Below, one piece after another: positions 42,826 through 45,491 of a stretch of DNA of 48,757 nt (position 1 is the stretch's first letter; every line of letters starts with the position of its first letter). Both the position numbers and the translations under genes were made by a program. The stretch lies in sequence record PV340577, one strand, 5' to 3'. The notes beneath the pieces are model-generated. The model was not told the DNA's origin. It saw nothing but the letters and a program-made list of their open reading frames with translations, and ran no database searches. The stretch comes from Escherichia phage PhiR70_1.

Positions 42826-45312
42826 ATGGCAGTAAAGATTTCAGGTGTACTGAAAGACGGTGCAGGTAAACCGGTACAGAACTGCACAATCCAGCTGAAA
42901 GCAAAACGTAACAGCACCACGGTGGTGGTGAACACGCTGGCCTCAGAAAATCCGGATGAAGCCGGGCGTTACAGCATGGACGTTGAGTACGGTCAGTACA
43001 GCGTTATTCTGTTGGTGGAAGGATTCCCGCCGTCACATGCCGGGACCATCACCGTGTATGAAGATTCCCGACCCGGTACGCTGAATGATTTTCTCGGTGC
43101 CATGACGGAGGATGATGCCCGTCCGGAGGCACTGCGCCGTTTTGAGCTGATGGTGGAAGAGGTGGCGCGTAACGCGTCCGCGGTGGCACAGAACACGGCA
43201 GCCGCGAAGAAGTCAGCCGGTGATGCCAGCACATCAGCCCGTGAGGCGGCAACCCATGCGACTGATGCTGCAGGCTCAGCACGCGCAGCCAGCACGTCAG
43301 CCGGACAGGCCGCGTCGTCGGCTCAGTCAGCGACTTCCAGCGCAGGAACGGCATCAACAAAGGCCACTGAAGCATCAAAAAGTGCTGCCGCTGCAGAGTC
43401 CTCAAAAAGCGCGGCAGCTACCAGTGCCAGTGCCGCGAAAACGTCAGAAACGAATGCCGCAGCGTCACAAAAATCAGCAGCCACTTCTGCATCCGCCGCG
43501 ACCACAAAGGCGTCAGAAGCTGCCACCTCAGCCCGGGATGCGGCGGCCTCAAAAGAGGCAGCGAAATCATCAGAAACGAACGCATCATCAAGCGCCAGTA
43601 GTGCCGCTTCCTCGGCAACGGCGGCAGGAAATTCCGCGAAGGCGGCAAAAACGTCTGAGACGAATGCGGATAACAGCGCACAGGCGGCAGCGGCCTCACA
43701 AACTGCATCGGCAAACTCCGCGACAGCAGCCAAAAAATCAGAAACCAACGCGAAAAATAGCGAGGCAGCAGCAAAGAGCAGCGAAACAAACGCTAAAGCC
43801 AGCGAAACTAATGCTAAATCCAGTGAAACAAACGCGGCGAAATCTGCGGCGGACGTACTTAATTATCGCAACCAGGCGCAAGTAATTGTTGGCGATAATA
43901 TCGGTCTTGGCTCAGCCCCGCGTGATTGTCCTGATATTTCCGGCAACCCATCAGGGTATATCGGATTTATGCGCATTATGAGTAATGCAAAAGGCTTTCC
44001 ATCGATTGCATCCGGTGAAAGCAGTCTTACGGGGTTTATTAGTCAGGTAGATGGAACTCCAGCGTATACAGGTGTATTTCAGGGATGGGCTACGCGCTCG
44101 CTTTATACTTATCGCTGGAATCCGACAACAGGCCCGCAATGGACACGTCACGCTCGCAAAAATGAAGTGGACCGTCTTGACCAATGGAATAGCGAAACAT
44201 GGATATATAACCATGATAAATCCATGCGCCTGGGTTTAACCGGATCAACATGGGGGTGTTACAGCGACACACAAAAAAAATGGATACCGCTTGATGTTTC
44301 TCATGGTGGTACTGGTGCGGCAACTATTGATGGTGCCAGAACTAATCTTGGATTAGGCAGGGATAATAGCCCTCAACTTAACAGTCTATTTCTTGATAGA
44401 TATAGTGATTCTACTGGCGCATACACTACTGGCGGAATGCTCCATACGAGGCTGTTAGCAAATGACAACACTGTGCGCCTTGCCGCTGATATGTATGTTC
44501 AGACTTTTCCAAATGAGCAAGGTCGATTAACAATAAGATTTACATACGGTGGTTCAACTGGTGCTACAAAATATCTAGACTTTACCTCAGAAGGTAATTT
44601 AATTGTAGATAGTGCGATACTGAAATCAACGGTCGAAAAACCTTTACAAATAAATAGTGCTAACCCGGCAATAAGATTTAATGAAACAGATCGCCCGGCT
44701 AACACGCCTACTTATACTCTCATTGCTAATGGTGGAAACTGGTTTATTCATAAAAGCGATTATGATGATGCCGGAAGCACCAGCACCGCAATTTCATATA
44801 ATTTTGCAAACGACAGACTTGATGTGACAAATATTAAAGCGTCTGGAAACGTTACGTGCGTAGCAGTAAACCATTCATCTGATCGCGACCTTAAAGACAA
44901 CATTCAGGTTATAAGTGACGCAACTGAAGCCATCCGTAAAATGAACGGGTACACCTACACACTTAAGGAAAACGGACTGCCTTATGCTGGCGTTATTGCA
45001 CAGGAAGTAATGGAGGCGATACCAGAAGCTGTGGGATCGTTTACTCATTATGGTGAAGAGTTGCAAGGTCCGACCGTTGACGGCAACGAGCTACGCGAAG
45101 AAACGCGCTATCTTAATGTTGACTACTCCGCCGTGACGGGGTTACTTGTTCAGGTCGCCCGTGAAACAGATGATCGCGTTACTGCGCTGGAAGAGGAAAA
45201 CACAACGCTACGTGAAAATCTGGCAACAGCAGGCACCCGGATCACCACTCTGGAAAATCAGGTAAGCGAACTGGTTGCACTTGTCCGGCAGTTAACAGGA
45301 AGCGAACATTGA
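42826..45312 (+). CDS. stf: Side tail fibre Stf with Ala/Ser/Thr-rich repeats and C-terminal S74-type intramolecular chaperone domain
   Basis: MAVKISGVLKDGAGKPVQNCTIQLKAKRNSTTVVVN... matches lambda Stf N-terminus; repeated K(T/S)SETNA units; C-terminal HSS|DRDLKDNIQ autoproteolysis-type motif and terminal coiled coil. Confidence 0.85.
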   Translation: MAVKISGVLKDGAGKPVQNCTIQLKAKRNSTTVVVNTLASENPDEAGRYSMDVEYGQYSVILLVEGFPPSHAGTITVYEDSRPGTLNDFLGAMTEDDARPEALRRFELMVEEVARNASAVAQNTAAAKKSAGDASTSAREAATHATDAAGSARAASTSAGQAASSAQSATSSAGTASTKATEASKSAAAAESSKSAAATSASAAKTSETNAAASQKSAATSASAATTKASEAATSARDAAASKEAAKSSETNASSSASSAASSATAAGNSAKAAKTSETNADNSAQAAAASQTASANSATAAKKSETNAKNSEAAAKSSETNAKASETNAKSSETNAAKSAADVLNYRNQAQVIVGDNIGLGSAPRDCPDISGNPSGYIGFMRIMSNAKGFPSIASGESSLTGFISQVDGTPAYTGVFQGWATRSLYTYRWNPTTGPQWTRHARKNEVDRLDQWNSETWIYNHDKSMRLGLTGSTWGCYSDTQKKWIPLDVSHGGTGAATIDGARTNLGLGRDNSPQLNSLFLDRYSDSTGAYTTGGMLHTRLLANDNTVRLAADMYVQTFPNEQGRLTIRFTYGGSTGATKYLDFTSEGNLIVDSAILKSTVEKPLQINSANPAIRFNETDRPANTPTYTLIANGGNWFIHKSDYDDAGSTSTAISYNFANDRLDVTNIKASGNVTCVAVNHSSDRDLKDNIQVISDATEAIRKMNGYTYTLKENGLPYAGVIAQEVMEAIPEAVGSFTHYGEELQGPTVDGNELREETRYLNVDYSAVTGLLVQVARETDDRVTALEEENTTLRENLATAGTRITTLENQVSELVALVRQLTGSEH

Positions 45313-45491
45313 TATCCTTCAAGCTCTGAAGGAGGCTGTTCCCGGTACGTTCAGACTGTTGTTGAGCTGGAAATCGCAACGGAGGAAGAGAAAGCGTTAC
45401 TGGCCGCATGGAAAAAGTATCGGGTGTTGCTGAACCGTGTTAATACAACAACTGCTCCGGATATTGAATGGCCAGTAGCACCTATAGGGTA
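45313..45491 (+). pseudogene. 3' remnant of a tail fibre assembly (tfa) gene
   Basis: No start codon; in frame directly after the stf stop it encodes ...[36 protein letters not shown], the conserved Tfa C-terminal motif. Confidence 0.55.

Follow-up and report, generated by a model that had tools for sequence, protein, structure and literature searches.

How does a side tail fibre gene whose product ends in a chaperone of its own come to be followed, directly after its stop codon, by the end of a gene for a separate helper? The question is raised by stf, the side tail fibre gene of the lambda-like prophage in a 48,757-nucleotide stretch of DNA from Escherichia phage PhiR70_1 (sequence record PV340577), referred to below as the window, and by the piece of the tail fibre assembly gene tfa that lies behind it. 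The explanation favoured here, which we consider highly probable as a whole, is the following. Stf would be a chimeric side tail fibre that is held at the tail tip by its N-terminal 281 residues, comprising the anchor and some of the shaft, while the foreign module that begins at residue 282 would be kin to the fibres of mEp021-like coliphages and have an S74 intramolecular chaperone at its end. Three such C-terminal domains would, if T5 pb1 and the K1F endosialidase are a guide, nucleate the folding of the trimer and then cleave themselves off at Ser684-Ser685 by means of Ser685 and Lys690. The separate helper, Tfa, would be dispensable because the fibre has its own chaperone. The 47-codon piece of tfa (the stub) would be the untranslated scar of one ancestral illegitimate join and, since it is the conserved end of tfa, would have been used repeatedly as the right-hand homology arm in the exchange of S74 cassettes among lambdoid phages. 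The parts of the locus are laid out as follows.

42826-45312, + strand: stf side tail fibre gene, 828 codons and a TGA stop (45310-45312), open reading frame (ORF) from the ATG at 42826
42826-43227, + strand: N-terminal anchor, phage_tail_N, residues 1-134 (PF08400, E=9.5e-72)
43228-43860, + strand: Ala/Ser-rich repetitive shaft, residues 135-345, recognised by composition, with SETNA-type repeats and the left mosaic junction 43667/43668 (residue 281)
43861-44877, + strand: distal, presumed receptor-binding region, residues 346-684, foreign to lambda, G+C down to 0.39-0.44
44878-45309, + strand: S74 intramolecular chaperone domain, residues 685-828 (PF13884), with the Ser685 codon at 44878-44880 and the Lys690 codon at 44893-44895
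45307-45348, + strand: filler of 42 nucleotides, bounded by the end of mEp021-like fibre homology (45306) and the start of Tfa homology (45349)
45349-45492, + strand: orphan 3' remnant of tfa, codons 147-193 and TAA, non-coding (PF02413)

A first-pass annotation, made from the sequence alone, had described stf as full-length, and the 828-codon frame is indeed open throughout; an alternative start is offered by a GTG at 42820, and NCBI nr holds a protein 100% identical to Stf. The same annotation had stated that the gene is broken in laboratory lambda, which is correct, as stf is split there into orf-401 and orf-314. Its word "intact" suits the gene but not the prophage, which carries an inserted IS4 and whose tape-measure gene is frameshifted. 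Stf is a lambda-type side tail fibre both by its phage_tail_N anchor and by its locus after J and lom. The gene order J (38613-42095), lom (42162-42761), stf matches that of lambda, and the lom product is recognised in Pfam as Ail_Lom (E=4.8e-119). Residues 1-94 align along the whole length with the lambda tail fibre chain of PDB 9e7m (E=4.5e-51); full-length Stf compared with PDB sequences gave only this lambda N-terminus and low-complexity matches, and in NCBIfam neither Stf nor the stub had a family at E<=0.01. Between lom and stf lies a hairpin that is annotated as a terminator in the cultured phages mEp460 (JQ182728) and Ayreon (MF807953).

42788-42809, + strand: terminator-like hairpin between lom and stf, an 8-bp stem with 7 G-C pairs and then a T-run

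The point at which the foreign module begins is given by the relatives. DNA homology to lambda and DNA homology to mEp332 both stop at 43667 (residue 281, in the shaft). Between lom and this position, phage mEp332 and the window are 96% identical, over 45350-48741 they are 98.7% identical, and between these homologous flanks mEp332 has a conventional stf tip and a complete tfa of 193 codons. This phage is a natural "before" state, from which the window departs between 43667 and 45349; since the flanks are kept and the interior is different, the distal fibre module has been swapped and the 5' 146 codons of tfa have been lost. The distal region shares 35-65% identity with mEp021-like tail fibres. 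No homology between it and the lambda stf tip was found, and it does not qualify as a Tfa-dependent tip of the lambda/T4 gp37-like kind. The S74 domain is closer still, at 78-80% identity to mEp021-like coliphage fibres, whose genes end in ...SEE or ...SEK followed by TAA and a strong terminator, with no tfa. To judge by these similarities, mEp021-like fibres are the likely donor type.

Between the two homologies stands the filler, which accounts for His828, the stop TGA and the 12 in-frame codons behind it. Its source was sought in the window and in 222 compared loci, where only chance matches of 10-14 nucleotides were found. The junction as a whole (S74 end, 42-nucleotide filler, tfa codon 147) is identical wherever it was found, and sequence comparison points to a single ancestral event behind it.

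The C-terminal S74 chaperone that the first-pass annotation had proposed was recovered in a Pfam search. Peptidase_S74 matches residues 685-736 with 55.2 bits (cut-off 22) and E=8.7e-15, over profile positions 1-57 of 58. The domain opens with S685-D-R-D-L-K690, the Ser and Lys of which are invariant in 32 aligned homologues; SSDRRIK of S16 gp37 aligns with this motif, as does the autocleavage domain of MYRF. In T5 pb1, Ser1264 and Lys1269 are catalytic, and a cut between Thr1263 and Ser1264 frees a chaperone of 133 residues (PMC4690869); the spacing of Ser685 and Lys690 is the same as that of the T5 pair (PMC4690869). The scissile bond in Stf would accordingly be Ser684-Ser685, and its cleavage would give a mature chain of ~70.8 kDa and a fragment of ~15.9 kDa. 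Against the PDB, the C-terminal 195 residues gave weak matches of the S74 type (S16 gp37, E=0.0013; MYRF, E=0.055) and none below 1e-3.

Behind the TGA, the stf frame runs on for 59 codons (45313-45489) up to the TAA at 45490-45492. This post-stop segment matches Caudo_TAP (PF02413) over positions 86-130 of 131 with E=3e-19, and the stub within it is 70% identical to residues 147-192 of lambda Tfa (E=1.8e-17) and 83% identical to residues 147-193 of mEp332 Tfa. The first-pass annotation had placed a startless Tfa C-terminus directly after the stop, in the same frame, at 45313-45491, and had read it as the scar of a swapped distal fibre module. The scar is supported by the "before" state in mEp332, and the frame, the missing start and the alignment with Tfa C-termini all stand; the 12 filler codons come first, however, and the TAA ends one base beyond the end coordinate given. 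Matches to Klebsiella and Salmonella P2-like sequences in which Tfa homology reached residue 4 of the segment were set aside as ungapped chance extensions, the true start being residue 13. The remnant lies directly after the stop and in frame because the stop itself lies in the filler of one illegitimate junction. With codons 147-193 only, the stub is missing the N-terminal fibre-binding domain of Tfa, and a search for a second Tfa-coding sequence within the window found none. The Prokaryotic Genome Annotation Pipeline (PGAP) annotates the equivalent stretch as a tail fiber assembly protein, incomplete, missing its N-terminus.

The junction is not specific to the prophage in the window: it is old, of single origin and has since spread. 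Of 5426 complete E. coli genomes, 805 carry the 146-nucleotide junction sequence, with 1397 places in all; the cultured phages mEp460 and Ayreon have the junction as well. The module at 44869-45473 is 90-98% identical in the prophages of AH25, APEC O78 and B1W1, in the RL465 plasmid record and in both cultured phages, while the region before the S74 domain and the DNA after the stub differ in each of them. In IMG/VR, all loci that have an S74 domain at least 87% identical to that of the window and sequence downstream of it share the junction, and mEp021-like loci with S74 domains 79-85% identical are without it. The filler was found in 51 viral contigs, in 50 of which the same S74 end lies upstream; its sequence shows no or hardly any change in 50 of the 51. 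The arrangement is already known, being widespread and annotated in hundreds of genomes, and is therefore not new. PGAP labels the fibre [quoted passage not shown], and a literature search gave no paper describing the S74-filler-tfa junction. One prophage among the compared loci (L121, IMGVR_UViG_2908572912_000001) has a different upstream partner: on its - strand at ~3737, lom is fused in frame at codon ~54 (...SDDLNGINVK) to the filler and the stub. The remainder of lom is missing there together with the whole of stf, the deletion ending exactly at the stf stop.

The stub has since exchanged sequence with intact tfa genes by homologous recombination and so has also lent the cassette an arm of homology for its passage between phages, including the lineage of the window. 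Mismatches between the window and mEp332 number 16 over 45355-45414 but only 27 over the 3327 nucleotides that follow, which places a crossover inside the remnant.

45414-45456, + strand: crossover interval within the remnant, where cassette-type sequence gives way to mEp332-type sequence, placed by the change in mismatch density

Across the relatives, one left junction is joined to many Tfa C-terminal tails, and at least six stub tails are letter-identical to intact Tfa tails including the natural stop (among them ...PVAPIG, ...PAVPVME, ...PTNPVRE and ...PALP). Many tails on one left junction imply repeated homologous exchange within ~140 nucleotides. Such exchange agrees with published work: Tfa is a variable protein whose conserved part is the C-terminal domain (PMC9608196), and lambda recombines inside tfa with defective prophages (PMC3945230). 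That the stub owes its retention to this role is speculation. A bolder proposal, which we put forward tentatively and hold less likely than not, sees more than a passive scar in the orphan tfa end: it would be a conserved docking arm on the right-hand side of a mobile fibre cassette with a chaperone of its own; with equal reserve, this cassette may be taken to comprise the shaft repeats, the tip, the S74 domain, the filler and the tfa 3' end. If the proposal were true, the cassette could enter any lambdoid phage with a conventional stf-tfa pair through homologous recombination, the recipient tfa being deleted each time, and the presence of the junction in ~15% of E. coli genomes with the stub never lost would be explained.

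Whether the stub is still read as protein can be judged from its pattern of variation. Codon positions were compared in 48 distinct module sequences and, for the same 42 codons, in 53 intact tfa genes, with the following numbers of variable sites at first, second and third positions.

S74 domain: 24/22/75
filler: 3/1/0
tfa stub: 14/15/19
42 codons in 53 intact tfa genes: 8/7/22

The S74 pattern indicates purifying selection on this domain across the relatives. The stub shows no sign of coding constraint: its pattern does not depart from uniform (p=0.65) and differs from that of the S74 domain (Fisher p=0.01), and this argues against both readthrough into the stub and its translation as a mini-Tfa. 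Single-copy substitutions in the stub (R>W and R>S) fall in a 10-residue motif conserved among the Tfa sequences examined, one stub copy carries a one-nucleotide deletion that shifts the frame, and all four substitutions in the filler are non-synonymous.

These data bear on three ways in which the stub might be functional. Readthrough of the UGA at low frequency would add 59 residues, namely the filler and the helical C-terminal peptide of Tfa, and would make the stub a functional extension of the fibre. This idea can draw on the position of the stub in the stf frame, on the TGA, which is invariant in all copies, and on the Tfa C-terminal domain being a trimerising helical module with an architecture like that of intramolecular chaperones (PMC9608196). 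The common frame is nevertheless what descent from a single junction would leave, third-position bias is absent from stub and filler alike, conserved Tfa residues are altered in single copies, one copy is frameshifted and no signal for readthrough was identified, so that we regard it as very improbable. Even less credible is that the stub is translated by itself as a mini-Tfa which still aids fibre assembly, in the manner of the PHROGs families of 78-88 amino acids, although its best PHROG matches include phrog_2341 (88 amino acids) and phrog_3792 (78 amino acids, "tail assembly chaperone") and the K-12 annotation has a TfaX of 61 amino acids. On the + strand of 45313-45492 there is no start codon (ATG, GTG or TTG) that gives an ORF of 30 amino acids or more, the N-terminal domain by which Tfa binds the fibre (PMC9608196) is missing, coding constraint is lacking and PGAP treats the stub as a pseudogene. 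A role in cis or as RNA, be it the Rfam small RNA candidate IS009, a promoter or a terminator, has a similarly slim chance. The stub region does give an IS009 match at 45252-45452, which at 82 bits is below the cut-off of 117, and a weak promoter-like site on the - strand at 45443-45416. Yet IS009 exceeds its threshold solely where the tfa coding sequence is intact (tfaD and the tfa genes of lambda and mEp332), and the match in the stub therefore reflects homology of coding sequence; promoter-like sites are about as common as chance predicts (10 against 7.8 expected), and a + strand terminator after the stub is absent. As an observation on Rfam itself, IS009 (RF02111), listed as an RNA gene, matches the 3' half of intact tfa coding sequences, at 7857-8055 of locus L003, 3417-3615 of L005 and 4406-4604 of L007, the genes being K-12 tfaD, lambda tfa and mEp332 tfa, and the family appears to model protein-coding DNA.

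The reading of Stf as a self-chaperoned chimera with an untranslated scar behind it must also be held against several points that weigh on the other side. The stub frame is open, with no internal stop, in 47 of the 48 distinct sequences, a fact that also favours readthrough, and from a scar that is purely neutral the open frame should in time be lost; the codon-position contrast between stub and intact tfa is a trend only (p=0.08). For Stf, we infer autocleavage and independence from Tfa by homology alone. An AlphaFold2 model of residues 346-828, built with 32 close homologues, has a mean predicted local distance difference test score (pLDDT) of 55.6 and is unusable in the S74 part (~30), and Foldseek of this model against the PDB gave nothing at E<=0.001. 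The fold typical of S74 chaperones is a helical bundle with hairpin "tentacles"; the model is confident only at residues ~366-446, and long C-terminal helices are predicted in its low-confidence S74 part. A weak Foldseek match to the R2 pyocin fibre (E=0.016) was not used. As for this particular copy, the window Stf is without the 258-residue segment that the Stf of AH25 has before the S74 domain and could be a form with a deleted tip, and with the IS4 insertion and the frameshifted gpH, this copy may never make virions. Taken together, the latter points define a further alternative, in which stf in the window is a decaying relic, a deletion derivative without its true receptor-binding knob in a defective prophage, and fibre and chaperone are inactive. 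The fibres of AH25, mEp460, APEC O78 and Ayreon are in fact 262-424 residues longer, what they have in addition lying immediately ahead of the S74 domain, and the prophage does have its IS4 between E and FI and its gpH frameshift. Forms of 828-830 residues with the same architecture, however, recur on many contigs at 86-100% identity, and the architecture is found again in strains B1W1 and NDM1 and in the RL465 plasmid record. The same architecture is present contiguously in the mEp021-like fibre L084, at 72.5% identity over residues 439-828. Moreover, the ORF is open, the S74 domain is under purifying selection across the relatives, and the gpH frameshift lies in a G-run and could be a sequencing error. 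A relic is accordingly unlikely, and the chimeric fibre with its scar and homology arm is retained as the explanation of the locus.

The comparison with AH25 can be given in numbers. Its Stf (L001, 2977-6249) is 95% identical to that of the window over residues 1-677 and 92% identical in the S74 part; the 258 extra residues (678-935) stand just before the S74 domain, the window interval compared there being 44846-44869. In these fibres, no part is more exchangeable than the segment ahead of the chaperone. The IS4 insertion sequence sits between the major capsid gene (ending at 28834) and the next head gene (30302-30709).

28851-30276: complete IS4-type element, 1426 bp, with 18-bp terminal inverted repeats and a 442-residue DDE transposase at 28935-30263

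The tape-measure gene H (33651-36211) is split by a shift of frame near 33900-33912, at a G-run, with an ORF of 747 amino acids from 33968. The first 86 residues of the split H appear to match lambda gpH. Either the frameshift is real and inactivating, or a homopolymer was misread in sequencing.

The locus leaves the current understanding of these fibres unchanged. It offers a natural example in which the separate Tfa helper would have been replaced, at one locus, by a built-in and later discarded S74 chaperone, with the junction kept. Lambda fibres of the S74 type would be movable without a partner chaperone gene and could be useful for lambda-based particles with new host ranges. For annotators, Tfa-like and Rfam IS009 matches downstream of such fibres are to be read as dead coding sequence.

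The lambda-like prophage fills almost the whole window and has a lambda-type integrase at 75-1145. APEC O78 shares the 3' end of the window and has ybhB-bioA, the lambda attB region, just downstream; the prophage is probably at the lambda attB site. Insertion at the DLP12/argU site was considered and ruled out by ybhB-bioA downstream in APEC O78. Besides the tyrosine integrase, there are genes for a large serine recombinase of 508 residues (Resolvase, Recombinase and zinc-ribbon domains) and a general porin of 360 residues (Porin_1, E=3e-152), at 11149-12675 and 16775-17857 (- strand), respectively. Behind the stub, 45493-48741 is AT-rich (G+C 0.28-0.39); since it is 98.7% identical to the end of the mEp332 genome, it is phage cargo and not host DNA. 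Two kinds of gene stand out in it.

46989-47741: AraC-family regulator, after the stub
47783-48148 (- strand) and 48293-48514: IS3-family transposase fragments, after the stub

An ORF of 56 amino acids on the - strand (45504-45674) lies just after the stub and overlaps a strong terminator-like hairpin on the same strand (45609-45585, an 11-bp stem and then a T-run). Further into the cargo region, 46359-46410 resembles the 3' part of a transfer RNA (tRNA) or transfer-messenger RNA (tmRNA), matching positions 346-363 of the tmRNA model with E=5e-4; ARAGORN gave no complete tRNA gene for this fragment, which may be a relic of an old attachment site. The layout of K-12 DLP12, with tfaX and then appY, is parallel to that of the window.

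Among known systems, the stf-tfa loci of Ur-lambda and mEp332 share with the window the J-lom-stf locus, the N-terminal anchor and 87-96% DNA identity up to 43667, and mEp332 also the 98.7% identity downstream of 45350. They differ in that their tip needs a separate Tfa of 193-194 amino acids; in the window, the S74 module replaces this tip and the first 146 tfa codons. The fibres of the mEp021-like (mEpimmI) non-lambdoid coliphages have a related distal region and S74 domain, but are without the lambda-type N-terminus, the filler and the tfa stub. Like the stub, tfaX of the cryptic K-12 prophage DLP12 is a partnerless C-terminal fragment of Tfa upstream of an AraC-family regulator, appY. Unlike the stub, it has its own start codon and other upstream sequence, is cut on its 3' side and is not linked to an S74 fibre.

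The self-cleaving proteins T5 pb1 and K1F endosialidase likewise have a C-terminal chaperone of ~135-145 residues, with the catalytic Ser first and a Lys five residues on, and the chaperone is released by autoproteolysis after the trimer has folded (PMC4690869). Their likeness to Stf is at the level of the Pfam motif only, and the carrier proteins and phage types are others. Close counterparts are mEp460 and Ayreon, which have the lambda-type N-terminus, the S74 domain, the filler and the stub; they are 90-93% identical to the window over 44869-45472. They differ from the window in the region from shaft to S74 domain, with fibres of 1202 and 1252 residues compared with 828, and downstream of the stub, where they carry DinI and an integrase in place of the AraC regulator and insertion sequence fragments of the window.

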